A program made the translations under genes and the position numbers. Shown piece by piece: positions 39,856 to 56,650 of a stretch of DNA of 64,000 nt. The stretch comes from Planctomycetota bacterium (lineage in GTDB: Bacteria > Planctomycetota > JAJSAM01 > JAJVHW01): the NCBI GenBank assembly GCA_965248445.1, contig CBDFJG010000004.1, forward strand, positions 1,975,880 to 2,039,879. Direction: 5' to 3'. How positions within the stretch are numbered: position 1 is the first letter of the stretch; every line of letters begins with the position of its first letter. Under the pieces are notes generated by a model. That model saw only the letters and a program-made list of their open reading frames with translations, had not been told where the DNA came from and did not search any database.

Positions 39856-41786
39856 GTCAGGACCAGTTCTTGGACGTGCTGGAGGTGGACGAGGCGCACC
39901 GGCGCATTGCGGCCGCGACGCCCCATCTCTCCCCGCGCGTCGAGATCGTGCCGCTCGCCGAAGCGCTCGGACGCGTGCTGGCCGAAGACGTGCGGTCCGC
40001 CGTGGACGTCCCCGGGTTCGACCGCAGCAACGTGGACGGGTTCGCCGTTCGGGCGAGCGACACCTTCGGAGCCGGCGAACTCCACCCGGTCGTGCTCGCG
40101 GTCGAGGAAGTGCGCATCGCCGCCGGCGCGCCCGCTCCCCGTGTTTTCGCGCTGCGCGCCGGACACGCGGTCTCGATCGCCACCGGTGCGCCCGTGCCCC
40201 GCGGCGCGGACGCGGTCGTGATGATCGAGCACACGCGTCCCGAGGGCAAGCGCCTGCGCATAGAGCGCGCCGCGGCTCCCGGAGCACACGTGACGTTCGC
40301 CGGAACCGATCTCGGGCGCGGGGATCTCGTCCTGCGCCGCGGTGCGTGCCTCACGTCACACGAGACGACCATGCTCGCGGCCGTCGGCGTGTCCGAGCCC
40401 CGCATGTTCCGTGCTCCGCGGGCGGCGATCGTGTCCACGGGTGACGAGATTCGTGTACCCGGCGAAGCGCTGCGCGTGGGCGACGTGTACGACGCCAACG
40501 CCCGCGCCCTCGCGGACGCGGTGCGCGAACTGGGCGGTGTCGCGGTCGAGCGGGGGATCGTGGCTGACGACGACGAGGAGTTGCGTGCCGAACTCGTGGC
40601 GCTCCTCGCCGATGACAAGATCGATCTCGTGATCCTCTCCGGGGGCACGTCGAAGGGCGACGGGGACGTGAACCACCGCGTGGTGGCTCAGCTTGCGAAC
40701 GAGCTTCATGATTCTCCGGGCATCGTCGTCCACGGGGTTGCGCTCAAGCCGGGCAAGCCTGTGCTACTCGCCGTGCTCCTCGGCTGTCCGGTGATCGTGC
40801 TGCCGGGATTTCCGACGTCTGCGGTTTTCACCTTCCATGAGTTCGTGGCGCCACTGCTGCGGCGCATCGGGGGCCGCCCCGACAGCGGCCGCCGATCGGT
40901 GGAAGCCGTCTCGCCGCTGCGCATCCCGTCCGTCGTCGGGCGGGCGCAGTACACGCTCGTGCACCTCGTGCCCGGGGAGAACGGCTACGCGGCGTTCCCG
41001 CTCGGTGCCGGCTCCGGCAGCGTCAGCGCGTTCGCCCGCGCCGACGGCTTCGTGCGCATCCCGACGACTCAGGAGCTGGTGGAAGAGGGCGAGCGGCTGA
41101 CCGTGAGGCTGCTCGGCCCGTCGCCAACGAGCGTCGCGCTGATCACGATCGGGTCGCACTGCATCGGTCTGGACGCGCTGCTCTCTCGTCTCGAGGTGGA
41201 GGGCATCCCGACGAAGTCCGTCGTGGTCGGCAGCAGCGCGGGCCTCGCGGCGCTCGCCCGCGGTGAAGGCGATGTCGCCGGTGTGCACCTGCTGGATCCG
41301 GCGAGCGGTGCGTACAACTCGCCGTTTCTGCCACCTGGTGTGGTGCTGCTCGGCGGCTACGGCCGCAGGCAAGGGGTCGTCTTCCGCCAGGACGACGAGC
41401 GTTTCGCGGGTCTCTATGATCCCGCTGCGGTCGTCGAGCGCGCGAACGCCGCGAGCTGCCGGATGGTCAATCGCAACCGCGGCAGCGGGACGCGCGTCCT
41501 GATCGACGGACTGCTCGGCGGCGTGCGTCCGGAAGGACACCATGCCGAGGCGCGCAGTCACCATGCCGTGGCGGCGGCCGTTGCACAGGGTCGCGCAGAT
41601 TGGGGCGTCACACTCGACGTGCTCGCCGAGGCGAACGGCCTGGGCTTCGCGTTCCTCTGCGAGGAGCGCTTCGACGTCGCAGCCCGCCAGGACCGGCTGG
41701 ACCGCCCGGGCGTCGCTGCGCTCCGCGAGGCGCTCGCGGATGACGCCGTGCGCGCCGAGCTGCGCGCGCTGGGCCTTGTCGCCTGA
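39852..41786 (+). CDS. moeA: MoeA fused to a C-terminal PBP (molybdate/tungstate-binding-like) domain
   Basis: FDRSNVDGFAV, SGGTSKG.GD, KPGKP and LPGFPTS motifs, then GSHC, GS..GL..L.RGE.D.AG.HL and NRNRGSGTR; ATGA overlap with the upstream gene. Confidence 0.9.
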   Translation: MSQDQFLDVLEVDEAHRRIAAATPHLSPRVEIVPLAEALGRVLAEDVRSAVDVPGFDRSNVDGFAVRASDTFGAGELHPVVLAVEEVRIAAGAPAPRVFALRAGHAVSIATGAPVPRGADAVVMIEHTRPEGKRLRIERAAAPGAHVTFAGTDLGRGDLVLRRGACLTSHETTMLAAVGVSEPRMFRAPRAAIVSTGDEIRVPGEALRVGDVYDANARALADAVRELGGVAVERGIVADDDEELRAELVALLADDKIDLVILSGGTSKGDGDVNHRVVAQLANELHDSPGIVVHGVALKPGKPVLLAVLLGCPVIVLPGFPTSAVFTFHEFVAPLLRRIGGRPDSGRRSVEAVSPLRIPSVVGRAQYTLVHLVPGENGYAAFPLGAGSGSVSAFARADGFVRIPTTQELVEEGERLTVRLLGPSPTSVALITIGSHCIGLDALLSRLEVEGIPTKSVVVGSSAGLAALARGEGDVAGVHLLDPASGAYNSPFLPPGVVLLGGYGRRQGVVFRQDDERFAGLYDPAAVVERANAASCRMVNRNRGSGTRVLIDGLLGGVRPEGHHAEARSHHAVAAAVAQGRADWGVTLDVLAEANGLGFAFLCEERFDVAARQDRLDRPGVAALREALADDAVRAELRALGLVA

Positions 41787-41826: not shown

Positions 41827-42282
41827 TCAGGCCGGGACGAGTCCCTCCGCCGACAGCATGCTGTCGATGCGTCCGCCCACCCGTGACCGGAGTTCGTCCA
41901 TGAACTCGTGCGTCACGAACTGCGGCAGCTGAATCTGTGGATGGGGGATGTGTGATTCGCCCGGTAGCGCGTAATCGTCGTCCGTGAACCCCTGCCTGCG
42001 TTCGAGCAGCATGCCACGGAGGAACGCTCGCCTCACGACGCCGCGGAGGTCGTCATCCGTGACGTCGAGGCCCGTGATCGCGCGTACCGCGGCCGTCATG
42101 CTGCCGTCGTCGAGCCCCGCGAACTTGCACCCGCCGAGCACGTCGTCGCGCAGCGTCTGCCACCCGCGGCCGGCGATGGCCTCGGTCCAGTAGTCCAGCC
42201 CGGTTTCCCGTTCGAAGACGAGCAGGAGGTAGGTCCGCATGGACATGTGGCCGCCGGCCAGGGCCCAGGGGTAGCCGGGGTA
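41827..42282 (-). pseudogene. C-terminal fragment of an aldehyde:ferredoxin oxidoreductase-family (W/Mo) enzyme
   Basis: YPWALAGGH, D.LGGCKF and ERRQGFT.DDY.LP resemble the AFOR C-terminal domain; cut by the IS1595 end; adjacent to the moeA genes. Confidence 0.65.
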
Positions 42283-43372
42283 GGGGCTCCCCCCTTCGCT
42301 CAGGTTGAGCGCCCGATCGGGTGACTAACATCGCACTTACAAGGAGGTGTGATGACCGGTGCCATGATCCCCTTTGCGCGCGACGACTCGCTGCCGGGCA
42401 CACTCGCCGAGTTTGTCGTGAGGTTCTCCGACGAAGATCGGTGTGCAGCCCTGCTGCGCCGGTGGAAGTACGGCGAGGGCGGCTTCCGCTGTCCAGCGTG
42501 CGGCGGCGAGGAGGCGTGGTTCCTGCCGTCACGCCGGCTCGACGAGTGTTGTGCCTGCCACAAGCAGGTTTCGCTCACCGCCGGCACCGTCATGCACGGG
42601 TCTCGCAAGCCGCTACGGCTGTGGTTCCTGGCCATGTATCTGTTCGTGTCGAGCAAGCGAGGCATCTCCGCACTCGAGCTGCAGCGCGAGCTTGGACTGG
42701 CCAAGTACCAGACCGCTTGGACATGGCTGCACAAGTTGCGAAACGCCATCGCGATGCGATCCACCGCGCCGCTGCGCGGACACCTCGAGATCGACGAGAC
42801 CTGGGAAGGCGGACTGCGACATGGCCGGCCGGGGCGTCCCAAGGTCGGCGACCGCAGCGCGCTGGTCATGGGAGCCGTCGAGATCTCACCGCGTCACGCC
42901 CTCATCGGTCGCATCCGTCTCGAATCCATCGCCGATGGTTCGGCTGACACGGTCAAGGCGTTCCTCGAGCAGCACGTCGCCGCACGCTCAGTGCTGTTCA
43001 CCGACGACTGGCGTAGCTATCGAAAGCCGGCTGACGACTTGGAGCACGACCATCGACCGACCAACGTGTCGAAGTCCGACGACGAGGCACACGTTGTGCT
43101 ACCTGCGATCCACCGCGTCTTCTCGCTGCTCCATCGCGTGCTCTTGGGCACGTTCCAGGGCGGCGTGCGACGCAAGTACCTCCCCAGCTACCTGGCGGAG
43201 TTCGAGTTCCGGTTCAACCGACGCACATCGAAGCGACGTGGACTGCTGTTCCAACGACTACTCGCCTGCGCCGTGCGGCGATGCCCTCCCTTCCACTGGG
43301 AGATCGTTGGGCGAACCGATGCGCGCACGCCACTCGCCGCCGCAGCCTGACCTGAGTGAAGAGGGGATCCCC
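42283..43372 (+). mobile_element. IS1595-family insertion sequence
   Basis: IRs GGGGCTCCCCCCTTCGCTCAGGT and (reverse complement) GGGGATCCCCTCTTCACTCAGGT; the flanks show no target duplication. Confidence 0.9.
42352..43350 (+). CDS. IS1595-family transposase
   Basis: CPAC...C.AC zinc ribbon, SLTAGT, GISA.ELQR.LG, EIDET, TDDW..Y and YL.EF.FRFNRR motifs. Confidence 0.93.
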   Translation: MTGAMIPFARDDSLPGTLAEFVVRFSDEDRCAALLRRWKYGEGGFRCPACGGEEAWFLPSRRLDECCACHKQVSLTAGTVMHGSRKPLRLWFLAMYLFVSSKRGISALELQRELGLAKYQTAWTWLHKLRNAIAMRSTAPLRGHLEIDETWEGGLRHGRPGRPKVGDRSALVMGAVEISPRHALIGRIRLESIADGSADTVKAFLEQHVAARSVLFTDDWRSYRKPADDLEHDHRPTNVSKSDDEAHVVLPAIHRVFSLLHRVLLGTFQGGVRRKYLPSYLAEFEFRFNRRTSKRRGLLFQRLLACAVRRCPPFHWEIVGRTDARTPLAAAA

Positions 43373-43402
43373 TGTGCGGGCTAGGGGGCAGGGTGGAGCC
43401 TC

Positions 43403-43431
43403 TTGACATCGATCGGCAACGGACATACTCT
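43403..43431 (+). promoter_or_regulatory. Sigma70-type promoter of the Cys-repeat gene
   Basis: TTGACA (43403-43408), 17-bp spacer, TACTCT (43426-43431); RBS AGGAGG before ATG 43465. Confidence 0.65.
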
Positions 43432-43464
43432 CGTCTCTCGTCGAATGGCATGCAGGAGGCGTTC

Positions 43465-44874
43465 ATGAGCAAGCGTGTATCGGTGTCGGTCGTTCTTGTA
43501 GTGCTCGGCGCGCTGGTGTGGTGTGCGCAGCCCGCCACGTCTTCTGCCGCGGAGCGCGAAACAGAGCCGCGGATCAGCACAACTGAGACTCCAGTGGAGA
43601 CCGCGCGAGCCGAGTCGCCGCTGTTTCGGTACACGTCGATGGCGGCATCGCGCGCCCAACACCGAGCCGGTGTAGATGTCTCCGCCGAAGGATTCGGCGC
43701 ACTCGACATCGAAGAGTGCGTTGACTGCCCGCTACCGCGAATCATCGTCCGCTCGCCGAGAGAGCCTGACACGTCGACGGAACTCGACGCTGGACGCGAT
43801 CCGTGGGGCAGCGCCAGCGGTTCGGTCTGCGGTTACACGATCAACAACCCGGTGTCGTGCGCTGAGTTGATGGCACAGCTCTACCAGGTCGCCGGCTCAG
43901 GCGGCTGGCTCCCGACGACCGGAGGGGAGGGCTGCGCCATTACAGCCGATGCGTCGTGTGCCACGAGCGGTGTCGACTGCTGGACAGAGGACACGGAGGC
44001 GGACGACTGCAGCGTGCAGTACTACTGCACGAACTCGAGTGAGTGCACGACGGACGGTGACTGCAGCGAGGGCGATGCATGCACGAGCGGGCAGTCCTGT
44101 TCCGAGGAGGAGGGGTGTACGCGCGGAGGCAACTGTACGGAGGGACAGTACTGCTCGGCCGGCGATAAATGCACCGCCAACGCCAAGTGCAGCCAGCACG
44201 AGTCATCGTCGGACGACGAATGCACCGAGGGCCCGCACTGCAGCGAGGGCGACAAGTGCACGGCCGGAACTCACTGCTCCGACGCGGACGAGTGCACGAA
44301 GGAAGGCAACTGCTCGTACGGCACAGATTGCACGACCGGTAACGATTGCACGAAAGACTCCGACTGCTCCGACAACTCGTACTGCACCCACGGCGGGAAC
44401 TGCTCGGATGGCGCAAACTGCACCGAGGGCAACAACTGCACGACCGGAGGTGGTTGCTCCGCGGGCACGAAGTGCACAGCACACGGGTCTTGCTCGATCA
44501 ACGTCGCATGCACGAGCGGCGACGTCTGCTCGTCTGCCGACGGCTGCACAGCCTCATACGTTTGCTCGTCTGCCCCAGACTGCACATCAACTATCTCGTG
44601 CTCGAAGGGCAAGTACTGTACGTCCGGATCTCATCTCTGCTCAGACGATCCCAGCTGCACTCAACATCCTGGATGCGAGGATGACGACGAGGAGCCGCCG
44701 CCGGGCTTCGTGATGCTGGATCTACTCGCGCCGTTCGGCGTCGGCGAGCACGCCAAGACGATGGCTTCGATGCTCGGACTTCTTCTAATCGGTCTCCTCA
44801 GCGGCAGTCTGATGCAGCGGAAGACCGGAGACGCGTCAATCGCGCAGCCGGACCGAGCCGACCACGGCGCGTGA
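43465..44874 (+). CDS. Secreted, C-terminally membrane-anchored Cys-rich hexapeptide-repeat protein (469 aa)
   Basis: Signal peptide MSKRVSVSVVLVVLGALVW; 36 C-[S/T] units; acidic/Pro linker, TM helix MASMLGLLLIGLLSGSLM and basic QRK tail. Confidence 0.88.
   Translation: MSKRVSVSVVLVVLGALVWCAQPATSSAAERETEPRISTTETPVETARAESPLFRYTSMAASRAQHRAGVDVSAEGFGALDIEECVDCPLPRIIVRSPREPDTSTELDAGRDPWGSASGSVCGYTINNPVSCAELMAQLYQVAGSGGWLPTTGGEGCAITADASCATSGVDCWTEDTEADDCSVQYYCTNSSECTTDGDCSEGDACTSGQSCSEEEGCTRGGNCTEGQYCSAGDKCTANAKCSQHESSSDDECTEGPHCSEGDKCTAGTHCSDADECTKEGNCSYGTDCTTGNDCTKDSDCSDNSYCTHGGNCSDGANCTEGNNCTTGGGCSAGTKCTAHGSCSINVACTSGDVCSSADGCTASYVCSSAPDCTSTISCSKGKYCTSGSHLCSDDPSCTQHPGCEDDDEEPPPGFVMLDLLAPFGVGEHAKTMASMLGLLLIGLLSGSLMQRKTGDASIAQPDRADHGA
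44008..44676 (+). repeat. Coding repeat (C-[S/T]-x-x-x-x)n: 37 Cys in 223 aa
   Basis: Counted from CSVQYY to CTQHPG-C: 34 hexamers, one 11-mer and one 7-mer. DNA units are diverged, so this is not recent slippage. Confidence 0.95.
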
Positions 44875-45054
44875 CGGCGGTTGCGCGACGCTGCGGGCCC
44901 CGTGGGCCGTGATTCACGAGTGACGCGCGCGGCGCCTTGACGCTCCGTGGCGATCACTTCTCTCCCAGTGGCGCTCTCGTCACTACCGGCGGCGGATGGT
45001 CCGATGTTCCGAGACAGCGAGCGCTCGACCGAGAGCACGCCTGGGGAGGGAGTG

Positions 45055-46626
45055 ATGGGCAGTCGATGCAGGAGCGCCGCAGTCGCGATGGGCGTCGCCG
45101 CGGTTGCAGCGGTGACCGCCTGCGGCAGTACGATTGGCCGGACTCCACAATCCTCGGGCGACGCGGTTTCCGCCCCTCCCCGGCGCCACGCAGCACCGGA
45201 CTCGCACGACACCTCCATCGGTTCCAACGTGCAACGCACAGCCGGAGTGGAACCGCCGGGAACAGAGCAGTCGCGCGGACTGCCGGTCGAGGGGACTGCT
45301 GCGCCGCGCTCGACGTTGGATGAGCCCCGTGGCATCTCGGGTGAGCTGCCGAGATCGGCAGCGGACTACCTTCGTGTAACCGGGGTCCCGCTGTCCCGCT
45401 GGAGCTTCCTTGCGAGCAAGGACGCGAGCCTCGTGTTCCCTGCGCTCTCGGCTCCGAGCGCGGTCGTAGCCCTCGGCGAGGCGACCCATGGTTCGCGCGA
45501 GTTTGTCCGCATACGACTCGAGCTCACGCGCGAACTGGTGGACACATTCGCATTTGAGATTCTCGCCCTGGAGGCAGCGCATGGCGAGTGCCGAGCGATC
45601 GACAGGCTCCTGTCCGCGTCCAACCAAGTCGCCGACACGGAGCGCCAGATCGAGCTGGCCCTGGGCGAAGTTCGCTCGCCGCTACAGCGCACCGAGGCCC
45701 TGCGAGAGGTGTTCCGGTGGATCGCCGAGCGGAACGCGACCATCGGGGAGGAGCCGCGGATCCGCGTCATTGGTATTGACCTTGGATTCAGCACCCAGCA
45801 GGTCTCTGAACTCCGCACTCTTCTCCGGGGGCTGGGCTCCGAGCGCGCCAGGACTCTCGCCGACAAGATCGCAGATACGCAGCCGTCATCGCTCCGCGGC
45901 GCCACGCCGGCGAGTCTCCGCAGCTGGGTCAAACTGGTCCGCGACGCGGAGTCGGTTCTCGACGACAATCGCGACCACCCGCGCATGAAGAGACTGGACG
46001 AGACGTGGGACCTGGTGCGACACGTGCCCCGGCTCATTCGCCAGACAGTGGAGTTCGCACTCGCGCGCTCAGCGCGCCGCGCCACCCAAGTGCGCGACAT
46101 GGCGATGGCGGAGTCTCTGATCGCCTTTGCCGGTGACGCGCGGCGGCCGCGCCGGGTTGTGGCGTGGCTTCACGACCTCCATGTGCGGCGATACGAGTCG
46201 CCGGATGGCCGAAAGGCGTGCGGTCAGCTGCTCCATGACACGCTCGGGAACCGCTACGTGCCGATTGGAACGACGTTCTCGAGGGGCAGCACCCTCGCAC
46301 GCGACGGTCACTCCCCGACGCACTCCATTGCTGAGTTCGTACTTGGCGACGCGAAGCCCGGATCCGTCGAGGCTCTGCTAGAGGCCGCGACATCTGGGAC
46401 GCCGACCGTGTTCGATGTTCGGCACAGCGCTCATCGGGAGTACACGCGTGCGACCGAGCGGGCTCTTCTTCGCACCTACCAACGCCGCGCGATCGGCATC
46501 GTCATCGACTCGGAGCGCGTTGCGCGGTGGGTCACCGTGTGCCCGCAAGCGGAGTACGACCTGATCGTCCATGTTCCCCAGGTCACAGCCGCCACGCCGC
46601 TGCAGCAGTCAGATTCTGATCGATGA
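45055..46626 (+). CDS. Erythromycin esterase-family lipoprotein
   Basis: VTAC lipobox; VVALGEATHGSREF, LALEA, GID, RD.AMAE, WLHDLH, G..L...LG.RY..IG and YD...H motifs. Confidence 0.85.
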   Translation: MGSRCRSAAVAMGVAAVAAVTACGSTIGRTPQSSGDAVSAPPRRHAAPDSHDTSIGSNVQRTAGVEPPGTEQSRGLPVEGTAAPRSTLDEPRGISGELPRSAADYLRVTGVPLSRWSFLASKDASLVFPALSAPSAVVALGEATHGSREFVRIRLELTRELVDTFAFEILALEAAHGECRAIDRLLSASNQVADTERQIELALGEVRSPLQRTEALREVFRWIAERNATIGEEPRIRVIGIDLGFSTQQVSELRTLLRGLGSERARTLADKIADTQPSSLRGATPASLRSWVKLVRDAESVLDDNRDHPRMKRLDETWDLVRHVPRLIRQTVEFALARSARRATQVRDMAMAESLIAFAGDARRPRRVVAWLHDLHVRRYESPDGRKACGQLLHDTLGNRYVPIGTTFSRGSTLARDGHSPTHSIAEFVLGDAKPGSVEALLEAATSGTPTVFDVRHSAHREYTRATERALLRTYQRRAIGIVIDSERVARWVTVCPQAEYDLIVHVPQVTAATPLQQSDSDR

Positions 46627-48737
46627 CCGGTCGCCGTACGTTGGTGTCAGTCATTCCATCTGGGCTGATCGTCGTGTTAGCGATAGCCGCGATGGCCTCG
46701 ATTCCTCCAACCGGCGGCGCGCCCGCAGGCGGTCCGCGCGCGTCAGATGTGGCGCAGCCTCCTCAGATTCTGTCGATAGTGCCGGACGTCGCACTAAACG
46801 CGTTTTCAGCCGGTGACGCCAGGGACGGGTTGCTTGTTGAGATACTCTCGCTGGAGACGCTCCTGGGAAACAAGCTGGACGTGCTCGACCTCGTCGATGA
46901 CTGGGGGGCGCGCGAGTCGATCGACCTCGACGACCTCTTGAGCCTCCTGGACCCTGACGAGCGCGTCAGCCTCCTCGACGCCAGGGAGTATGTAGATACC
47001 GCCGTCCTGCTGGGAGCGGTCCGCCATCACAGTGTCCGGCGCGTCGTCGAGCGCCTGCGCTCCGGGAGAGGCGACGGTGGGCTCTCGCCCACCGTCGAGG
47101 ACTGGCTTGCCAGGCACGGCAACATCCTCGACCTGCTCAGCTCCCTCGACCGGAATGGTCCAACGCGAATCTCGCTTGCCTCTCATGGCGAGCGACCGAC
47201 GGACAGTGATCTGCTCATCATCCGAGAGCAGTTGGATGCTCGGACGGCGGGGGGCGTGTCCGAAGCGGACTCGCGCGTGCTCTTCAGGCTTGCCATTCTC
47301 GCGCGCTGGGGCGATGAGGAGAGCCTGGCGCGACTCTCACGAGGGTTGGCTGCGGCGACACTGCAGGAACTCGTCGCTCTCAGCGACGAGGGCGCAGAGC
47401 GAGGCCCGCTCCTCTCGGTTTTTCGACTCTCGCGAGGCCCCGCTCTGGCCCTCAGCGTCCTCCGAACGGATCAGATTGAACTCCTCATACGAGGAGTTCG
47501 GGAGTCCGATCCCGGCACCCACCGCGACGTTCTCATGGCCACCTGCCTGATTGCCGCCGGATCGCCCTCCCGCGAGGCGTCGCCGTCGCTGATGAGTCTG
47601 TGCATGCGACATCTGGAAGCGCCAACGCTTGTGAGGGTGCCGGCAGCGCTTGCCGTGATGAGTCAGGGATTCGTGGCAGATGCAGGATCGACGCGGGACG
47701 CGGCTGTTGCGCTCGTCAACGAGCACGTGCGAACCAGCGGGGAGATCGAGTTGCTCACCTCGCTCCTTCCGCGCTGCCGAGCCATCTTCTACTTGATAGC
47801 GGTGTTGGAGCGCGAACGCGCCGCCGACGGCGCCGGCGACGCCGCATGGAGAACGATGACGCTCGAGATCCTCGGCCGGTGGCTCGAGGAGGAGTTCATG
47901 TCGAGCCCCACGGCGGCGGTGTTCCGACGGCGCCCGGACGCCGATCGGTTGCGACGACATCTGCAGAAGCTCGACCGCGCCGACGCCGCGCTCGACGTAC
48001 GGATCGCGCTGACCGCCGGTCTTCTCTACGCGACCTCGATCGGCACGGAGGGCGCCCCGCGGCACAAGGACGCCGTCCTTGAGCTCTACGAAGACACGGA
48101 CCTCGCCGAGGCGAAGTACGACGACATTTGGCTGTTTCGGTCGATACCACGCCTGCTCCTACCGTTCGAGCTCGCGGACGACGGCGTCAGCCATGTCGCG
48201 CGTCGATTTCAGGACCGCAACCTCATGGTGATGCGGTTCGAGCCGCTGCTCGTGGCCCTGATTGCCCACGGAGCACGCCATGGTCACCACGAGGTCCGCG
48301 CGCTGCAGTTGTCGTACGAGCGCTTCGCGCTCTCGCACCCGAGTCCGCCGCAGCGCGCTTGGTCCGCCTCGCTGGCGATCCGGAGTAGCGCGGGGCGAGA
48401 CGAGGTCGTCCGAACGACCACGCTTCTCGCTCGGCGGGGGGACGTCGAGGCGCTCGCGGCAGCGCTCAGAGCAGCTCGCGACGTCGCCATCGTTCGGAAC
48501 GACTACTCGGCCGCGGACCTGGTTGCCTGCCTGAGGGTCTTGTTCTCCGCGTGCGAGCCCACCACCCCAATGGCGCCCCTCTTCGAGAGCGTCGAAGACT
48601 TTGCGGGTGTCGGTGACGACGCGTTTCGCGACGCTGTCGCCACCGGGCTGGCCCAACTCTCGGAGCAGGTTCACTGGCGGGGCAAACTAGCGTCGGTTGC
48701 CGCGAAGTTCCGTACGCCCGGCGGTGAGGAGCAATAG
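46623..48737 (+). CDS. Hypothetical exported alpha-helical (HEAT/ARM-like) protein
   Basis: N-terminal TM/signal; Leu/Ala/Arg-rich; ATGA coupling to the upstream gene and TAG/GTG overlap with the downstream gene. Confidence 0.65.
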   Translation: MTGRRTLVSVIPSGLIVVLAIAAMASIPPTGGAPAGGPRASDVAQPPQILSIVPDVALNAFSAGDARDGLLVEILSLETLLGNKLDVLDLVDDWGARESIDLDDLLSLLDPDERVSLLDAREYVDTAVLLGAVRHHSVRRVVERLRSGRGDGGLSPTVEDWLARHGNILDLLSSLDRNGPTRISLASHGERPTDSDLLIIREQLDARTAGGVSEADSRVLFRLAILARWGDEESLARLSRGLAAATLQELVALSDEGAERGPLLSVFRLSRGPALALSVLRTDQIELLIRGVRESDPGTHRDVLMATCLIAAGSPSREASPSLMSLCMRHLEAPTLVRVPAALAVMSQGFVADAGSTRDAAVALVNEHVRTSGEIELLTSLLPRCRAIFYLIAVLERERAADGAGDAAWRTMTLEILGRWLEEEFMSSPTAAVFRRRPDADRLRRHLQKLDRADAALDVRIALTAGLLYATSIGTEGAPRHKDAVLELYEDTDLAEAKYDDIWLFRSIPRLLLPFELADDGVSHVARRFQDRNLMVMRFEPLLVALIAHGARHGHHEVRALQLSYERFALSHPSPPQRAWSASLAIRSSAGRDEVVRTTTLLARRGDVEALAAALRAARDVAIVRNDYSAADLVACLRVLFSACEPTTPMAPLFESVEDFAGVGDDAFRDAVATGLAQLSEQVHWRGKLASVAAKFRTPGGEEQ

Positions 48738-51130
48738 TGACCGGTCACGCAGCGGCCGCGCAGCACGCAACGGCGATGTCTTCGTCACAGGCACGAGCGC
48801 GAGATGCGTTGTTCGCCGTCCTTGCGATTGCCGCCATGACCGTGCTCCGCGGGCCGAACGTCGTCGCGACTCCGTTCCTCCGCCTCTCTCACCTTGTGCT
48901 GTGCCTGATCTTGCTCCTCTGCGCAACGGCACAGGTCACCGACCTGCGCGCAGCCGTCCGAAGTAGGCGGGCATGGCTCGGCGTTGGATGCTGCCTCTCG
49001 TACGTCGCGTACTTGGGCGTGGCCGAGGATCCGTCTCCGCTGTTCTTCGTGTTTGTGTACGGCGTGGGCACGCTCGCGTTCGGATCCAGATCGACACCGC
49101 CGTTCCGATGGGCCATCGTGCAGTCCAGCGCGGTCTTGTACTGCGCTCTGGCTCTGGCGGACCAATCGGTCCTGTGGACTGCGTCGGTCTCCGATGCCAT
49201 CGCTCCCTACTGGGGAGACGGCGACGTCGCACCCGCTTCCGACGTCAGTCGCGTCGGCGTTTCCTACAGGGGCATCTGGATCGCGCTGGGTGTGGGAATT
49301 CCCCTCGCGCACGGGATCATCGTGCGCTCCGCCTCGCGTGCGCAGCGCATCGGCAGTGGAGTGGCTCTCCTGGCGCTGTTCTGGACCCTTCATCGAGTCC
49401 CTCCAACGAACGACGTACTGATCCCGTGGATCACGGCCTTGGGGCTACTGACCGCGGCACTCTTGGTTCCAGGAAACGAGCAAAGAGAGGTAAGCGGCGG
49501 AGTCCTGCACCGCGTCTCCGCGGTCGGAACGGCAACGCTCCTGGCGTCAATTGCGCTCATCGCGTTCTCACCCCCAACCGGGCAACCGGACGGCCGCATC
49601 ACGTTGGTGCGCGGCGCCTACAACACCTGGACGCCAACAGAGGAGGACCGAACTCCCCAGACCGGCGCCATGGTTGGGTACTTCCGGATGCTCCTTGAGC
49701 GGATTCCGATTGAGACATCCATCGTGGATCGCGTCGAAGACCTGCCTCTCGACACGAGCGTCGCAGTACTGGTGAATTACTTCGGATCCCTGAATGGCCA
49801 AGGAGTAGCAGACGCAGCCACCCTCGAACGACTCGAACAGTTCGTTGAGAATGGAGGCACGCTTCTCGTATTCGGAGATCACACCGACATCTCCGGGAAC
49901 ATGAGGGCGATCAATCCGCTCCTGACGAAGTACGGGATCGAGTTCATCTTTGATAGCGCGATGCCGAGAACAGAAGGGGGTTGGAACGGGGCGCTGGCAT
50001 TCGCTTCACATCCGATGTTCAACATCGTCGAGACCACTGACGAGTTCCGAGTCAGTGTCGGCGCAACGCTTCAAGTCGGCCCCCCGGCGCGGCGCCTCAT
50101 CGTCGGGCGCGCGGGATTTAGCGATTGGGGCGATCGCAGCGCCCCCAACCGGGCATTCCTCGGCGATTGGTCTCTCGGGCCGGGTGAGCGACTCGGAGAT
50201 GTGGCGCTGGCTGCATCCGCACCGTCGTCGAGCGGACGCGGCCGTATCATCGTGATTGGCGACACGTCGATGTTGCAGGAACTCTCGCTTTCGGCAAGTT
50301 GGCGATTCGTCACTTCCCTGCTCACGTGGAGCGCGACGGCGCCCGCCTCAGGTTCTCAGCGTGTTCCGGCTGGCGTGGCTCTCCTCGTGATCGGCGCGAT
50401 CGTGGTTGTCATAGGCGGTGCGCGGTCGTCGCTCTTGACCGTCACGCTGGTGCTCTTGATCCCGCTCGCGAGTATCTCGATCGCCTCGTTCGTTGCTCAC
50501 CGATCTCAAGGCGCGCTGCTGCGTCCTGTCGGCGTCGCGTGGCTACGCGGGCATCGAGGATTCGGCTCCCCGACGTACGGTTCGGGCCCCGCGAGTCTTG
50601 AGGAGTTTGGGCACGCACTGGCGTTCGCGGACTTCCTGCCACTCGTCGATCGAGACGGCGACGTGGGGACTTATGATCACGGCGATGCCGTGGTCGTGCT
50701 TCCAGGGAGCGGCCCCATGACAGTGGATGAGGCGAACGACCTGCTCCAGTTCGTCGAACGAGGCGGCACACTTCTCGTGATCGGCGGACACGAGGACCAA
50801 GAGTCTCTTTCACCGCTCCTCGATCAACTGCGCGTCGAGATCGCAGATGTTCCGCTGGGACGCTGCGTGGGCGTGCGGTTCCCGTCCGGCCCCAAGGGTG
50901 GTCAGTTCCGGCAGGCGTGGGCAATCCTCGGCGAGCAACCGGCGCACGCTGATGTGATTGCCACCATGGACCAGTTCCCTGTTGCGATGCGCTGGCGACG
51001 CGGGGCAGGCGTCGTGGCCCTGATCGCGGACGCCGACTTCCCGACCGATCGGTGCTTTGAGCGCGATGAGCAGCCAGTTTGGGAGGTCTTCGAGTTCCTC
51101 CGCGACACGCTCACCGGAGCCGATCTGTGA
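48737..51130 (+). CDS. Polytopic membrane protein with two GATase-like/DUF4350-type soluble domains
   Basis: About 8-9 N-terminal TM segments; FVENGGTLLVFGDHTD, GRGRIIVIGDTS and a second FVERGGTLLVIG domain. Confidence 0.72.
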   Translation: MTGHAAAAQHATAMSSSQARARDALFAVLAIAAMTVLRGPNVVATPFLRLSHLVLCLILLLCATAQVTDLRAAVRSRRAWLGVGCCLSYVAYLGVAEDPSPLFFVFVYGVGTLAFGSRSTPPFRWAIVQSSAVLYCALALADQSVLWTASVSDAIAPYWGDGDVAPASDVSRVGVSYRGIWIALGVGIPLAHGIIVRSASRAQRIGSGVALLALFWTLHRVPPTNDVLIPWITALGLLTAALLVPGNEQREVSGGVLHRVSAVGTATLLASIALIAFSPPTGQPDGRITLVRGAYNTWTPTEEDRTPQTGAMVGYFRMLLERIPIETSIVDRVEDLPLDTSVAVLVNYFGSLNGQGVADAATLERLEQFVENGGTLLVFGDHTDISGNMRAINPLLTKYGIEFIFDSAMPRTEGGWNGALAFASHPMFNIVETTDEFRVSVGATLQVGPPARRLIVGRAGFSDWGDRSAPNRAFLGDWSLGPGERLGDVALAASAPSSSGRGRIIVIGDTSMLQELSLSASWRFVTSLLTWSATAPASGSQRVPAGVALLVIGAIVVVIGGARSSLLTVTLVLLIPLASISIASFVAHRSQGALLRPVGVAWLRGHRGFGSPTYGSGPASLEEFGHALAFADFLPLVDRDGDVGTYDHGDAVVVLPGSGPMTVDEANDLLQFVERGGTLLVIGGHEDQESLSPLLDQLRVEIADVPLGRCVGVRFPSGPKGGQFRQAWAILGEQPAHADVIATMDQFPVAMRWRRGAGVVALIADADFPTDRCFERDEQPVWEVFEFLRDTLTGADL

Positions 51131-53691
51131 GCAGGCTGGGCTTCTGTCGCGCCTCGCTCCTCGGCCTTCCGGTCGCGCTGGTCACGCTCTCCACGTATGC
51201 ACGATCGCTCCCGCCGAGCGAGGCAATCGGACTCGGCGCAGCAATTGGGACGACCATCGCGATGTTCGCACTGTTCGGACCACGGGACGATCGAGTTACC
51301 GAAGGAAGTGTCGGGCGATTCGAGCTGGCCGGGTGCGCCTTGATCGCCGTCCTTGCGACCTACGCCGGGCTCGAGTTCGCGCGATGGGCGACTGCGGCGA
51401 CTGCCGCGCTGGCCGTCGCGGTGACAGCCAGTTTCCTCGCATCGCGCGTGCCGGTGCAACTTCGACGCGCCCTCGTGCGCGCAGGAGACGGGGCGAGATG
51501 GAGTTCGCAAGCGGTCCTCCTCAGCGGCGTTCTGTACGCCGCGTACTGGGAAGCCGAGCCGTTCCTGCAGAGTGTCGAGTTCGGCGCCCCTCTGGCATCA
51601 GCGGCCGCACGGCTGCTCGGTTGGCATGCCAGTGTCGACGGTCGGGGACTCGGACTCGCAACGGGCGAGCACAGGTCGTTCTTCGGCATCTCGCCACGAC
51701 ACGGAGAGGTATTCCCATCGCTCCTGTTCTGCGGCTACGTTGCGGTCTCGGTCGCGACGAGCCGATCGCTCGCTCTCCGCGAACGCGTGTTGCGCTGTGC
51801 CGCTGCGGTGCTCGCCGTCCTGACGTGGCGCGAGATTCTCGTGCTCGGAAAGGCCACGCTCACGTCGACGGACTCCTGGCATCTCGAGATGGCTATGAGC
51901 ACCGAGCTGTATCTGCTCGCCCAAGTGCCGGCTCTGGTCGCAATTGCTGCGCTCGAAGGGCGTCCAGCCGCCGTCTCGGCGCGGCCGGAGCCTCGGAAGC
52001 TGAGACTGACATCGTCTGCCTTCGCACTATCGGTTGCGTTGCTAGTGTTCCCACTGCTGTGGATAGACCATGGCACCCCGAAGGCCGGCCGGATCGCCAT
52101 TGACGACGCTCACAGTGACTGGGAGTGGTCCACGATCCCGCTCAACAAGACAGTCTTCGGACCGAAGACGACCTACAACTACTGGAGCATGAACGAACTA
52201 CTGGGGAGGCACTTCTCAGAGCTACACGTCAATGAAGAGGACGTGCTCGATAGCGACACGTTGAGGAGCCACGATGTCTGGATACTGAAGACTCCGACGC
52301 GCCCATACACGTCGGAAGAATTGTCTGCCATACATCAATACGTTCAGGACGGTGGCGGAGTCTGGCTCATTGGCGATCACACCGACATCTTCGGGATGAA
52401 CACGTATCTGAATCAAGTATCCGAGCGCTACTCCATCCACTTCAACACCGACGCGGTTGGACCACAAGACTGGACAGGCAGAGTGCGCCAGCTCTGGACT
52501 CCGCCTCGGAGAAGTCATCCGATTGCAGGACAGATCCAGGAGTTCCAGTGGGCCACATCGTGCAGTCTCGGCGCATCTCCGTGGACATCGGACGTGGTAA
52601 TGGCGGGTCACGCACTCAGCGCGGATGGCGTCGATTACGCCCTCAACACTGGATTTGGCGATCACATACAGGACGCGTCTGAGCCGTACGGCAGGATGCT
52701 GCAGTGTGTAGCTGTCCGGTCGGGTCGGGGGCGCGTACTCGCGTTCTCCGACAGCACCGTGTTCTCGTCCTTCTTCTTTCACATACCCGGCAAGCCAGAG
52801 CTGGCGATCGGAAGTGTCTGGTGGCTCAACCACTCGAACGGATCGGACCGGTGGCGGTACCTACTCTTCTTGCTGGGGTGCGCACTCGCGGCCACCGTGA
52901 CAACGGCTGCAATCCGACGCGACAATCAACCGACGGCCGGCGGCGTGGTCATCGGAGCGCTCACAGGGCTGAGCCTCGCGGCGGCTGCATCGATGTGGGC
53001 CGCGCGCAACCACCATCCCGAGCCTGCAGACGCGAGAGATGAGCGCGACAGGGTCGCGTTCGTCAGTTCGGATGATCGAGTCTTGCCCGCGCGCACGTCG
53101 GTCTCGCACGACGAGAGTTCCCCAGTTGTGTTCCAGACGCTGTTCGTTTGGACGCAACGCGCCGGGCTAGTCCCGGAGTTTGAGCCGCAGGTTCCCGTCG
53201 ACGCATCTCGTTTCGTCGGGTTGGTGCTCATCTCGCCGGACGGCCTTGCCGAGGAGAGCCTGGACCGCCTCGCGACATACGTTCACTCTGGTGGCAATGT
53301 GCTGGTCCTGTCGGAGAACGGCGCAGCGCTACGCACAATACTCGGGACGCTCGGAAACGCGAATTCGGACGTCGTCGAACTCTCGAACGCGGAGGGCGGC
53401 ACAGAGACCCAGTTGAGTCTGCACCGGTCAGACTCGTGGGAGACGATCTTGCTCCCCGACAGCGGACTCCGCCTCCGTGGAGTAGACGCAATTCTGACCA
53501 CGCGTGACGACGAGATCGTGCTCGGCGTAGTCCGACACGGCGCGGGGCACCTCTATCTGAGCACAACGTCGGCCGGGTTTTCGAACGCATGGTGGGGCGG
53601 GACGACAATGATCCCGACGAAGTCGCGGTACGCAGCGTACGAGCTGTACTGGGATCTGATCGACCGCTGGTCGGCCGACGCTAGCCGCTAG
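51127..53691 (+). CDS. Paralogous polytopic membrane protein with an exosortase-like TM region and two GATase-like/DUF4350-type domains
   Basis: GTGA coupling; IAIDDAHSDWEW, ILKTPT.PY, YVQDGGGVWLIGDHTD, GRGRVLAFSDST and YVHSGGNVLVL motifs. Confidence 0.72.
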   Translation: MSRLGFCRASLLGLPVALVTLSTYARSLPPSEAIGLGAAIGTTIAMFALFGPRDDRVTEGSVGRFELAGCALIAVLATYAGLEFARWATAATAALAVAVTASFLASRVPVQLRRALVRAGDGARWSSQAVLLSGVLYAAYWEAEPFLQSVEFGAPLASAAARLLGWHASVDGRGLGLATGEHRSFFGISPRHGEVFPSLLFCGYVAVSVATSRSLALRERVLRCAAAVLAVLTWREILVLGKATLTSTDSWHLEMAMSTELYLLAQVPALVAIAALEGRPAAVSARPEPRKLRLTSSAFALSVALLVFPLLWIDHGTPKAGRIAIDDAHSDWEWSTIPLNKTVFGPKTTYNYWSMNELLGRHFSELHVNEEDVLDSDTLRSHDVWILKTPTRPYTSEELSAIHQYVQDGGGVWLIGDHTDIFGMNTYLNQVSERYSIHFNTDAVGPQDWTGRVRQLWTPPRRSHPIAGQIQEFQWATSCSLGASPWTSDVVMAGHALSADGVDYALNTGFGDHIQDASEPYGRMLQCVAVRSGRGRVLAFSDSTVFSSFFFHIPGKPELAIGSVWWLNHSNGSDRWRYLLFLLGCALAATVTTAAIRRDNQPTAGGVVIGALTGLSLAAAASMWAARNHHPEPADARDERDRVAFVSSDDRVLPARTSVSHDESSPVVFQTLFVWTQRAGLVPEFEPQVPVDASRFVGLVLISPDGLAEESLDRLATYVHSGGNVLVLSENGAALRTILGTLGNANSDVVELSNAEGGTETQLSLHRSDSWETILLPDSGLRLRGVDAILTTRDDEIVLGVVRHGAGHLYLSTTSAGFSNAWWGGTTMIPTKSRYAAYELYWDLIDRWSADASR

Positions 53692-53738
53692 CAAGCGATC
53701 TCGAGCCGCGGGAATGACTCCGAGGAGACGATTCGGAA

Positions 53739-54086
53739 GTGTCGCCAGCCACGGAGGCCGTCGTCGGCGTCGCGTTCCGGTTCGTCCTTAGTTGGACGAC
53801 GCTCGTGGCCGCGATCCGGATCGTCCAGGATCGGATCGGGCTCGGAGTTCCCGAGACGCGGACGCTGTGGTGGCAGACCGCGGCGATATCGCTCGCGACA
53901 TCGCTGACCGCCGCAATTCCGGGCGTAGGAGCGGTCCTGGCGCTGATCCCGTTCTACCTTCTGGCGACACGGTGGTTCCAGCCGACACTCATGGGATGCG
54001 CCGTTCTGTGGATCGTGCAGCTAGGGCTGTCGTACGCCGTCGTGTCGTTGCTTGCTCTGGGGTACGTCGTCTACCTGGGCCTCTGA
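53739..54086 (+). CDS. Small integral membrane protein (about 4 TM)
   Basis: GAGGAG upstream; 115 aa, almost entirely hydrophobic. Confidence 0.65.
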   Translation: MSPATEAVVGVAFRFVLSWTTLVAAIRIVQDRIGLGVPETRTLWWQTAAISLATSLTAAIPGVGAVLALIPFYLLATRWFQPTLMGCAVLWIVQLGLSYAVVSLLALGYVVYLGL

Positions 54087-54098
54087 CAGGCGCGCCCT

Positions 54099-56210
54099 CT
54101 ATCGCGCGACGCGGAGTCTTGTTGTCGCGTCAGCGACTGCCAGCCTCAGTCGACTGTCGGGGATCTCAACCGTAGAGAGCCGTGCGACGAGCTCGCGCGC
54201 AACACTCGGGTCGGACGCGTGAGCCCAGCGACTGAGAGACTCGGCGATCTCTAGCTTCGAAGAGAGTGATGCACGTTCCGATGTCAGCGTGTCGACGATG
54301 GTCTGCACCAGCTCTTCAGCGCTGATCCACGTCCGGGCGCGCGACATGACCGCCAGGGTATCCAGAGCCGATGCGAGCGCCACCCCTTCGACAGGGATCT
54401 TGCATGCACTGATGACGGCCCCCACGTCGGTCGTAGTCGATGCCAATCGGAGTGCCGCGCGCGCCGCACACTCGCGCACACGAGCGTGCGAGTTTGCACT
54501 AATGAGATCGGTCAAAACTGCGAGAAGTTCAGCGCTGCCCAGTTCGCGACGCTCGGGCCCGAGCCGGTCGAGCAACCGGCGGAGTTCTTTCGACCGCGCG
54601 GAGCTCGCAGCGATCTCCTTAATGTGGACGACGAGCTCCTCGTTCGTCATCGCCATAGTCACCATCGGCTCGATCAAGAGACGATGGTCGCGGCGTATCT
54701 GACCTTCCAACTCCCGCTGCGGCCCAAATCTGCGGACCAGCTCTACGACTGAGAGCACGGGTGTCGATCCGAGGTCCGCTCCCATGCGCAACACGACAAC
54801 CTCGATCGCCGCGCGCGCGATCAAGAAGCGCGGGTTCGCGGCCGGCCAGCCCAGCGCACGGAGTTCTGCAGCAGTTCGTGCTACCGATCGCTCACCTTCT
54901 GACTCGCTGCTTTCTTGCGGTATGCGAGCGACGACGCGTAGCGATCGCGCAATCGCACTCGTCAGCATGTCAGACCACAACTCAGCGTCCGGCTCCCCAG
55001 CGTTGTCGATGCAGATACGAGCCGCCACTAGCAGTCCGGCAAGATGATCCAACCGAAAGGAGTATCCGAGGACCTCGTCGGGCGTAGGGTCGAGCGCACG
55101 TATCCGTTCTCGTGTGAGGCTGTCATTCCAGTCACGCCTCACAATCTCGCCGAGCTGGAAGTGAACGGCGGTCTCGCGTACCTGTGGCCGCGAGTCACGC
55201 ACTAGGTCGATGAGAGTCGGCTCGAGATCCACATTGCCGGTGTCGCGCCTCGCCAGCTCGTCGACAAGGAGAGTGGCACGAACGCGATCGCCCGATTCAG
55301 CGGACACGTCCGAGCTCGCTCGAACGAGCGCGAGTAGATCACTGTCATCGAGCGTCCGGAGAGTCGGTAGCCATCGTTCGCGGAGTCCTCGAAGATCCGC
55401 GGGGGTCGCGAGCGTTGCCCCATTCTCCGTCTCGAACGCCGTAGTCTCGAGTTCGCGAAGAAGAAGCGCTCGCGCTTCGTCATCCCCGTGCGCGGCGAGA
55501 AACGACAATCGAGAACGCAGCTCGACGCGCCACTGACGAGGCTTGTTCGCGCGAACGTCAGCAATCCGTCCCCAGAGCGCCGAGCGAGCTTCCGGGCTGA
55601 GATCCCCGTCAGTTCGTGCCGCATCTAGCATGGAGTGGTCATGCTTCAGAGATGTCACCGCAACGCGGTCGGCTGCGGCGTTGGATGCGTACCATTCCTT
55701 GAGTGGCTCGGACCACGGACCTCGAACGTCGTCCTCGAGAAACGTCAGCACGAAATCGGTCTCCGCCAGGGCGGACAGCGCCGCAAGCGCTACTGTGTCG
55801 ATTCGCGCGCACTCGCGGGAGCCGATTGCAGAGGGGTGATCCCGAAGCAGCTCAAGCAGAATGGGGATCATCTGTTCGCCGGTGGCCACCCACTCTTCAA
55901 CAAGTCGCTCGTAGTCCGCTTGCGTGCCACCAGCGACAGAGAGCTCGACCAGCCGATGCGCGGCGCGTCGTCGCGCTGCCTCAGCGTCCCACGGACTGGG
56001 TTCGCCGTACTGGCTGTTTTCGCCGATCTCGTCGTCCTGCGCGCTGCGTGACGCGCGGTGGCGTGGGGCGGAGTCAGCGGGAGGTCCATCAGAGTCGGTT
56101 TCCGCATGCTCAGCCAGCCTGTCATCCGGTCGCGGATGGCCTTCGCGAGTGGCCAGGATGAGAAGGCTCGCGAGAATGAGCGCCAACGCTGTGAAGATCC
56201 GAACCCTCAT
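54099..56210 (-). CDS. Hypothetical exported alpha-helical (HEAT-like) protein
   Basis: Signal MRVRIFTALALILASLLILA; HEAT-like segments L..LVRDSRPQVRETAV and ARVRECAARAAL. Confidence 0.62.
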   Translation of the reverse strand: MRVRIFTALALILASLLILATREGHPRPDDRLAEHAETDSDGPPADSAPRHRASRSAQDDEIGENSQYGEPSPWDAEAARRRAAHRLVELSVAGGTQADYERLVEEWVATGEQMIPILLELLRDHPSAIGSRECARIDTVALAALSALAETDFVLTFLEDDVRGPWSEPLKEWYASNAAADRVAVTSLKHDHSMLDAARTDGDLSPEARSALWGRIADVRANKPRQWRVELRSRLSFLAAHGDDEARALLLRELETTAFETENGATLATPADLRGLRERWLPTLRTLDDSDLLALVRASSDVSAESGDRVRATLLVDELARRDTGNVDLEPTLIDLVRDSRPQVRETAVHFQLGEIVRRDWNDSLTRERIRALDPTPDEVLGYSFRLDHLAGLLVAARICIDNAGEPDAELWSDMLTSAIARSLRVVARIPQESSESEGERSVARTAAELRALGWPAANPRFLIARAAIEVVVLRMGADLGSTPVLSVVELVRRFGPQRELEGQIRRDHRLLIEPMVTMAMTNEELVVHIKEIAASSARSKELRRLLDRLGPERRELGSAELLAVLTDLISANSHARVRECAARAALRLASTTTDVGAVISACKIPVEGVALASALDTLAVMSRARTWISAEELVQTIVDTLTSERASLSSKLEIAESLSRWAHASDPSVARELVARLSTVEIPDSRLRLAVADATTRLRVAR

Positions 56211-56290: not shown

Positions 56291-56474
56291 GAGTTATGAC
56301 CAAGAGTTGTGGCTGGGCGCCACCGGATTTCAGGCGGCGACCTTGATGCCATCCTTGAATTGGACGCCGGTGATGACGTCGGCCAGCAGCGTGGCTGCGT
56401 TGAGTTTTCTCCCGTTGCGCTGAGCTGCCAGAGCCAGCTTGAAGACCATCGCAAGACAGGCCTTCGCAGACATG
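56291..56474 (-). mobile_element. IS256-family remnant (transposase C-terminus and right end)
   Basis: LAMVFKLA..AQ...RKLN....LADVI.GV.FKDGI* and terminal ...CCACAACTCTTGGTCATAACTC. Confidence 0.75.
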
Positions 56475-56650
56475 GGTATCGGGTTGACGACCGTAGCCAC
56501 TAGATGTAGTGTCTGTGCCCTGTGGCGCGCCCCGGCTACCCTGGCAGCATCCTGGAATTCACGCGCCAGTTCGCCACCGAGCAGCAGTGCTTGGACTACG
56601 TCGTGCGCTGCCGTTGGCCCGATGGGTTTCGCTGCCGACGCCGCGGCGAG
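56475..56650 (+). mobile_element. IS1595-family remnant (left end and transposase N-terminus)
   Basis: YPGSILEF.RQFATEQQCLDY...RWPDGFRC matches the N-terminus of the transposase at 42352 (LPGTLAEF..RFSDE..C...RW...GFRC). Confidence 0.7.

Follow-up and report, generated by a model that had tools for sequence, protein, structure and literature searches.

A tandem pair of GIFT-domain membrane proteins and its secreted, cysteine-rich clients: a widespread system without a named family

What becomes of a secreted protein in which 40 consecutive cysteines each have a Thr or Ser five residues upstream, and what have the two large membrane proteins encoded nearby to do with it? The question is raised by a locus in a 64,000-nucleotide stretch of a Planctomycetota bacterium (GenBank assembly GCA_965248445.1, contig CBDFJG010000004.1, positions 1,975,880 to 2,039,879), hereafter called the window, in whose coordinates all window features are given. 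An earlier note on this DNA had read seven genes as a dedicated export, processing, or anchoring system for the Cys-repeat protein, with the C-terminal transmembrane (TM) tail of that protein treated as in sortase or exosortase substrates. Comparison of related loci indicates that a three-part system, made up of the Cys-rich client and the membrane proteins C and D, is real, widespread, and without a named family, and that it is wider in reach and different in logic from that proposal. C and D probably form a dedicated, leader-directed modifying enzyme that acts outside the membrane on Thr/Ser-Cys units of the client.

Scanning one genome for each species, we confirmed 398 stretches with a relationship to D; the best 80 of these 398 are the loci compared here. 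C and D are adjacent in 76 of the 80 loci, which come from many phyla, and the other four loci start less than 200 bases from a contig end. At least 15 bacterial and archaeal phyla hold the system. Because the remaining four genes, which encode an Ere-family protein and proteins of 704, 115, and 703 amino acids, have a tblastn match in none of the 80 loci, the conserved core is, on this comparison, three genes and not the seven first counted: the secreted Cys client (43465-44874) and the tandem membrane pair (48737-53691). Apart from the clients and archaeal context genes, no neighbor family occurs in more than 4 of the 80 loci; among these neighbor families there is no conserved sugar-supply gene, no ATPase family above the same count, and no ABC transporter recurring around the pair.

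Clients were sought near the pair with a strict leader test, that is, a signal peptide plus [ST]P[LVAF][FY] within 3.5 kilobases (kb). This combination is found in 52 of the 80 loci versus 15 of 2093 signal-bearing open reading frames (ORFs) of the window's own genome. In 13 more loci a variant leader or a piece of Cys repeat was read by eye, and 10 loci are on contigs that are short or cut. Five loci are left, all with no adjacent client; in four of these genomes a search with a leader profile finds a Thr/Cys-repeat protein elsewhere (L119-L122), two of them at weak expectation values (E) of 2e-4 and 0.047. The genome-wide leader profile found no client in the fifth genome (L046), in which C is split by an ORF resembling a transposase or insertion sequence (IS); a split C and no client are as expected of a decaying copy. 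Recurrence was the test that the earlier note had set for its claim of a dedicated system without a named pathway, and the linkage of the pair to Cys-repeat secreted proteins across unrelated genomes bears that claim out. The pair is present in 19 of 301 genomes of the phylum and in 4 of 41 closer relatives, this genome being counted in both, and the leader profile gave weak matches only (E 0.001-0.05) in 40 relatives, one of them to a TPR protein of a pair-bearing genome. No second client or second membrane pair was found in this genome, where a leader profile trained with the window protein finds this gene only.

What the clients have in common is a signal peptide and, usually, an SPLF-type leader at the N-terminal end. 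They do not share the TM tail, which is present in 7 of 33 Cys-rich clients; other C-termini go by lineage and consist of FlgD/T9SS-like, PKD/CARDB, or Ig domains, 'WGxxK' tails, or nothing. NCBIfam names none of the clients beyond such C-terminal domains. As far as these alignments tell, the conserved client signal is N-terminal, which the earlier note had not seen, and the leader is common among clients but not required.

These observations bear directly on the original model, in which C and D would export or anchor the client by processing its TM tail in the manner of an exosortase, and make it very unlikely. The window client has such a tail, as do 7 of 33 others, although the basic end that was claimed for it is weak (QRK). 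The TM domain of D aligns in register with 22 exosortases (probability 57%, score 33, compared with 13.5 for a reversed alignment and at most 20.6 for 15 block shuffles). The likeness is weak, however, with hhalign probabilities of 22-57% for D and 2-5% for C. PF09721 matches none of 44 members, and the genome's own exosortases are missing from the top 12 matches of the D profile. Atlas scores of 0.78-0.79 are a lead only, and Atlas offers no usable match for the C TM domain. According to PMC1569441, the motifs that define exosortases are C-x-G, N-x-x-R, and H-x-x-x-G. The column of the catalytic Cys holds Cys in 0 of 135 D sequences; a C-x-G of any kind lies close by in 4 of the 135 and, among C sequences, in 1 of 58; the Asn of N-x-x-R occurs in 0 of 135 D, whereas its Arg (Arg235) is kept in 121 of 135; and H-x-x-x-G occurs in 0 of 135 D and 0 of 58 C. 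Because C-x-G, the Asn, and H-x-x-x-G are absent, D is by these measures not an exosortase; its TM domain may be an exosortase-derived scaffold. Nor do the clients as a group carry the exosortase-client signature of a C-terminal motif, TM segment, and basic cluster. The varied client C-termini, the two ordinary exosortases that the genome already holds, and the lack of any ATPase family in more than 4 of the 80 loci also argue against tail processing, and anchoring of this kind is not supported by the sequences compared.

If C and D instead modify the client, the arrangement of its Thr, Ser, and Cys residues is of interest. The window client has 45 Cys, and 36 of them are followed by Ser or Thr, as had been noted in the form of 36 C-[S/T] units. 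The array is better read as 40 [T/S]-x4-C units, with Thr or Ser at position -5 of 40 consecutive Cys, irregularly spaced Cys followed by A, A, W, or E included. The mature protein has an even number of Cys, 44. A CxxC motif stands before the array (43717-43728) and is found as well in the closest clients P0122, L008, and L010. No Pfam family matches the window client (P0121), and PF02420, the insect antifreeze repeat, is not matched either.

The hexad spacing invites a comparison with beetle antifreeze protein, and it is conceivable, if unlikely, that the client is a disulfide-stapled β-solenoid of that kind, served by C and D as a dedicated foldase or disulfide scaffold. The sole Protein Data Bank (PDB) match of the window client is 1EZG, with Cys in register but at an E of 6.1, which is not significant, and its homolog P0122 carries a precomputed PF02420 match that was not reproduced at E 0.01. 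The even Cys count of the mature client and Cys479 of D, present in 112 of 135 sequences, also count on this side. The beetle fold needs small residues at +3, however, and in the window client this position is Gly, Ala, or Ser in just 23 of 36 units and a large residue in 13. Moreover, the same pair serves archaeal clients of 100-220 amino acids with 2-7 Cys, as well as repeats of other periods.

The idea that C and D modify the client draws on a feature common to these different repeats. Client repeat types include T-x4-C hexads, TC hexads, TMNPMDxxC, YTxDPxxWPxC, TDxxWC, and TxCP heptads, and the clients reach up to 92 Cys; in the short archaeal clients the Cys of the core often lie within hydrophobic stretches. 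All of these types have a Thr or Ser some residues ahead of each Cys. With seven duplicate, cut, or frameshifted clients left out, 9 of 12 'CT' arrays and 11 of 12 'TC' arrays open with a Cys that is preceded by a Thr at -4 to -8, and 11 of 12 and 12 of 12, respectively, close with a Cys that lacks its adjacent Thr. Searched against a library, the leader profile matched 602 client clusters (50% identity) at E ≤0.001, of which the top match, P0127, was rejected as a false positive, a protein with 112-residue repeats that matches through 'APVF'. Among the 149 matches listed after its removal, 123 have at least two core Cys (491 Cys) and form a held-out set chosen by leader alone and not by core. 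In these 123 proteins Thr has z values of +3.5 to +7.8 at -8 to -4 of Cys and -1.1 to +0.7 at +4 to +8, values that overstate the effect given that the set is mostly related archaeal-type proteins, at least two of them shared with the training set. Thr stands upstream of 230 of 371 Cys and downstream of 117 of 371, and Gly at -1 (z +10) and Pro at -2 (z +9) are likewise enriched. The numbers of Cys have no even bias (67 odd and 60 even among 127 cores).

On two Thermoplasmatales chromosomes (G046 and G047) the leader matches number 18 and 40. The cores inspected among them vary, and many include a hydrophobic stretch with Cys around or inside it. Single ORFs can contain several leader-plus-core units, three in P0130 and two in the client L071:3724-6168. 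One protein with a twin-arginine-like signal, N-x-C repeats, and 21 Cys (L116:2356-3066, minus strand) is encoded about 4 kb from a divergent pair, and its link to that pair is uncertain.

What kind of enzyme might C and D be? The two are paralogous, as the earlier note had said of its GDHTD membrane proteins, with a profile probability of 100% over 489 columns. C scores 41.6 bits with DUF4350 (cut-off 30.4) and is above the cut-off for PF09822 as well; D scores 40.1 bits with IFT52_GIFT (cut-off 27.2) and 33.8, again above cut-off, with DUF4350. The best PDB matches of the pair are IFT52 GIFT domains (E 1e-9 and 1e-8), and other GIFT/GATase-like relatives include OST48 and the middle domains of glycoside hydrolases. 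NCBIfam has no name for any C member beyond weak GldG matches; the GldG model (TIGR03521) gives 12.9 bits against a cut-off of 389.85, and no ABC genes recur at the 80 loci. Topology was derived from family hydropathy and charge, with one C helix below threshold. Because the loop ahead of the first GIFT domain is rich in Lys/Arg in both C and D, the GIFT domains are predicted to lie outside, and this topology leaves C and D without a cytoplasmic output domain.

At 18-37% overall identity, the first GIFT domains of C and D keep GDHT and further polar or aromatic residues that are invariant: His382, Thr383, Asn393, Asp406, Trp416, Asp463, and Asp509 in 58 C sequences, and Trp332, Tyr350, His418, Asp542, Ser543, Thr544, and Ser547 in 135 D sequences. 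This conservation suggests a binding or active site. The invariant His/Asp sets and the conserved Cys of D could also bind metal, and with the CxxC ahead of the window client's array they give some grounds for a role in which C and D load, strip, or sense metal on metal- or sulfur-binding clients with free Cys/Thr ligands, or merely clip the leader. We consider such a role quite unlikely, as it does not predict the one-way Thr spacing and would have no cytoplasmic output domain to act through.

A tree of D proteins bears on whether enzyme and client travel together. Seven D proteins with hexad 'CT' clients and one with another repeat form a single branch that spans four phyla (support 98/84), whereas the branch excludes further D proteins of Planctomycetota and Lentisphaerota that have 'TC' clients; the nearest proteins to the window's D are from Planctomycetota. 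The hexad-client locus L081 dropped out of this tree, and unlabeled rows were thinned to one in three. The grouping fits a transfer of enzyme and client as a module but is not proof of co-evolution, since kin share labels.

Linkage, leader, and tree would all fit equally well if C and D used a lipid-linked donor to place a sugar or some other group on Thr/Ser while the Cys formed disulfides. OST48 and the glycoside-hydrolase middle domains are among the relatives of the pair, there are well-known multi-TM enzymes that use lipid-linked donors on the outside of membranes, and the 'TC' hexad class fits the O-fucosylation consensus, C-x4-(S/T)-C. We think this alternative rather unlikely: the Cys counts have no parity bias; beyond the clients and archaeal context genes no neighbor family occurs at more than 4 of the 80 loci, so that a conserved sugar-supply gene is not seen; and arrays that end on a Cys without an adjacent Thr are left unexplained.

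We favor a modification that involves both residues. In the mechanism that we propose, the client would be exported by Sec, and C and D would form a heterodimeric enzyme that works at the membrane's outer face and binds the client's SPLF leader. This enzyme would join each Thr or Ser to the Cys five residues downstream to give a lanthionine-like thioether ring, the chemistry of which is a guess. The exosortase-like TM domains might handle a lipid-derived group that activates the Thr hydroxyl, a further guess made because no ATP is expected outside. The modified client would then stay on the surface by means of the C-terminal tag of its lineage, here a TM helix.

Lanthipeptide precursors have a grammar of their own: cores that vary behind a conserved leader, more than one core in a precursor, a large set of precursors for one enzyme, one-way Thr-to-Cys spacing, and Pro-Gly turns. 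The clients likewise combine a conserved leader with a variable Ser/Thr/Cys core. We propose C and D as a thioether enzyme because the client grammar is lanthipeptide-like and because LanB, LanC, and LanM were not found (PF05147, PF04738, and PF13575 in 0 of 5 host genomes, LanKC/LanL kinase domains not being searched and the window's own genome being 92% complete). As a control, which covers PF05147 only, LanC was found in 25 of 121 in the phylum. By this analogy, it is possible, though we put it forward tentatively, that the product consists of lanthionine-like Thr/Ser-Cys thioether rings made by C and D. Slightly more doubtful is the wider proposal of a new class of leader-directed cross-linking enzyme in which two GIFT-domain membrane proteins build such rings outside the cell without ATP or Lan enzymes, so that secreted proteins would become surface chains of up to about 90 rings, with as many as 40 variable clients in a single archaeon.

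A number of observations weigh against a leader-directed thioether enzyme. Its chemistry is the weak point: GIFT domains are not known to be catalytic, no ATP-free route to Thr dehydration is apparent, and several of the invariant residues are perhaps structural. Between client classes the distance from Thr to Cys varies, from 5 up to about 15. In the held-out set, 141 of 371 Cys have no Thr at -8 to -4 (Ser not counted), and 22 of the 149 leader matches have no core Cys, many of these looking truncated. A neighbor protein in G004 has N-x-C repeats instead. Exported TPR proteins can carry the leader (SPLY) and no Thr/Cys array; those of L155, L188:13110-14057, and L189:13107-14141 have 2-4 Cys, and another lies upstream of C in L191. 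Among 15 further stretches of this phylum (one more was a duplicate of an earlier locus), 9 have a client, 2 have only a leader-TPR protein, 1 has neither, and 3 are cut by contig ends; five of the nine clients lack the leader (L195, L197, L198, L200, and L201). When the window protein was kept out of its training, an ungapped leader profile had no match in this genome and so missed the window client. Finally, the basis of our interpretation is comparison of sequences.

Three of the leader-TPR proteins are encoded directly upstream of C, and one guess is that they are adaptors that supply the leader for leaderless clients. The leaderless clients L200:14642-17041 (minus strand) and L201:6212-7216 (plus strand) have C-S-V repeats at a spacing of 10-16 residues, followed in one by Ig-like domains.

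The features of the locus are collected in Table 1.

Table 1. Features of the locus and its borders, in window coordinates.
Feature	Position	Strand	Details
IS1595-family element, intact, left border	42282..43373	+	NF033547 E 9e-55; depth about 8x that of block
Promoter-like site, with the ribosome-binding site of the next row	43403..43459	+	TTGACA (43403-08), 17-nucleotide gap, TACTCT (43426-31); sequence reading; putative function
Ribosome-binding site, AGGAGG	43454-59	+	Ahead of ATG 43465; sequence reading
Client protein P0121, 469 amino acids, core part	43465..44874	+	Signal peptide, leader, CxxC, 40 [T/S]-x4-C units, acidic/Pro linker, TM tail
SPLF leader motif, residues 51-54, then likely helix	43615..43626	+
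[T/S]-x4-C array, T152 to C404	43918..44676	+	40/42 core Cys with T/S at -5; 36 with T/S at +1
Erythromycin-esterase-family protein, lipoprotein-like N-terminus, local passenger	45055..46626	+	PF05139 E 9.6e-39; far below EreB/EreD cut-offs
704-amino-acid exported protein, local passenger or lineage-specific helper	46623..48737	+	No family above cut-off
Membrane protein C, 797 amino acids, core	48737..51130	+	About 9 TM, GIFT/GATase-like domain with GDHTD (49874), TM hairpin, second GIFT-like domain
Membrane protein D, 854 amino acids, core	51127..53691	+	Same layout as C; GDHTD at 52372
115-amino-acid membrane protein, not conserved with core	53739..54086	+	3 clear TM segments by hydropathy
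703-amino-acid exported, probably helical-repeat protein, convergent, not conserved with core	54099..56210	-	HEAT_EZ E 0.011, below cut-off
IS remnants, right border: IS1595 5' piece and other short repeat	56330..56650	.	Zn_ribbon_IS1595 E 8.8e-5, below cut-off; depth raised 56471-56648

In the DNA contigs of one sample (two runs), the block is one single-copy piece (43355-56356/56500) flanked by multi-copy repeats, and its description as bounded by IS elements holds, with an intact IS1595 on the left and IS fragments on the right. The overlapping gene junctions are also as claimed (ATGA at 46623, TAG/GTG at 48737, and GTGA at 51127). A promoter and ribosome-binding site had been read ahead of the Cys protein; both sequences are present, but the promoter at 43403..43431 is only putative, with a -10 box (TACTCT) that matches the consensus in 3 of 6 positions, for which reason the site is absent from the list of a consensus scan that found 2 sites versus 1.2 expected. 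The greater use of A/T-ending codons relative to the flanks applies to six of the seven block genes, whose G+C content at third codon positions (GC3) is 0.68-0.78 versus a genome median of 0.86; the small membrane gene, at 0.82, does not follow. A GC3 of 0.78 or less occurs in 8.7% of 1165 long ORFs of the genome, and the lower values of the six genes are consistent with acquisition as an island. A repeat search gave coding repeats only.

As for the passengers, the Ere-family lipoprotein had been recognized correctly, in agreement with its PF05139 match and lipoprotein-like N-terminus, and was rejected as a part of the machine by its absence from the 80 loci. The supposed 4-TM protein has one clear segment fewer. 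The convergent gene is exported as stated, with a HEAT-like character that stays below cut-off. No likeness was found between the Ere-family and 704-amino-acid proteins or between the two helical proteins of 704 and 703 amino acids. To the left of the block lie a MoeA-PBP molybdopterin gene (39855-41786, plus strand) and a 139-amino-acid C-terminal piece of an aldehyde oxidoreductase that adjoins IS1595 (41827-42246, minus strand), a gene that the element may have cut. Prophage-like DNA begins immediately to the right, with a phage terminase large subunit that contains an inserted LAGLIDADG homing-endonuclease region, probably an intein (58044-60854, minus strand).

Pfam and NCBIfam name only generic domains for the parts of the system. 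A full-text literature search gave no description of it, although mention in subscription journals, supplements, or the 2012 archaeosortase/exosortase survey is possible; PMC7726332 mentions DUF4350 and exosortase in unrelated table rows. Even on a cautious reading, this is an unnamed leader/client system common to bacteria and archaea, in which GIFT/DUF4350 domains gain a testable enzymatic role and substrates become predictable from a short leader. If the products are thioethers, peptides would be cross-linked under the direction of a leader outside the cell by an unknown chemistry, surface proteins would be stabilized without disulfides, and a protein-stapling tool might be within reach.

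Several known systems invite comparison. Like the exosortase/archaeosortase and PEP-CTERM system (EpsH, PF09721), this one pairs a multi-TM protein with a large set of secreted clients marked by a common short motif, and the TM domain of D has a weak profile likeness to exosortases; here, however, the signal is N-terminal, the catalytic motifs are absent from C and D, and the clients are rich in Cys, whereas PEP-CTERM proteins have very little of it according to PMC1569441. The window client resembles the Tenebrio antifreeze β-solenoid (PF02420, 1EZG) in being Thr-rich with a Cys at every sixth residue, but the match is not significant, 13 of 36 residues at +3 are large, and hexad repeats are absent from most clients of the system. 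With GIFT/GATase-like proteins (IFT52, GldG, OST48, and DUF4350) the pair shares its domains, four GIFT-like ones across C and D; it differs in being tandem 9TM-GIFT-2TM-GIFT paralogs with an invariant GDHT and no conserved ABC transporter. A parallel in grammar is with lanthipeptide systems (LanB/LanC and LanM, and multi-precursor sets of the prochlorosin type), which also have an N-terminal leader, a variable Ser/Thr/Cys core, Thr before Cys, Pro-Gly before Cys, and many precursors per enzyme. In the system described here, by contrast, the clients have signal peptides, surface tags, and up to 92 Cys, and the candidate enzymes are multi-TM GIFT proteins that are predicted to face outward.

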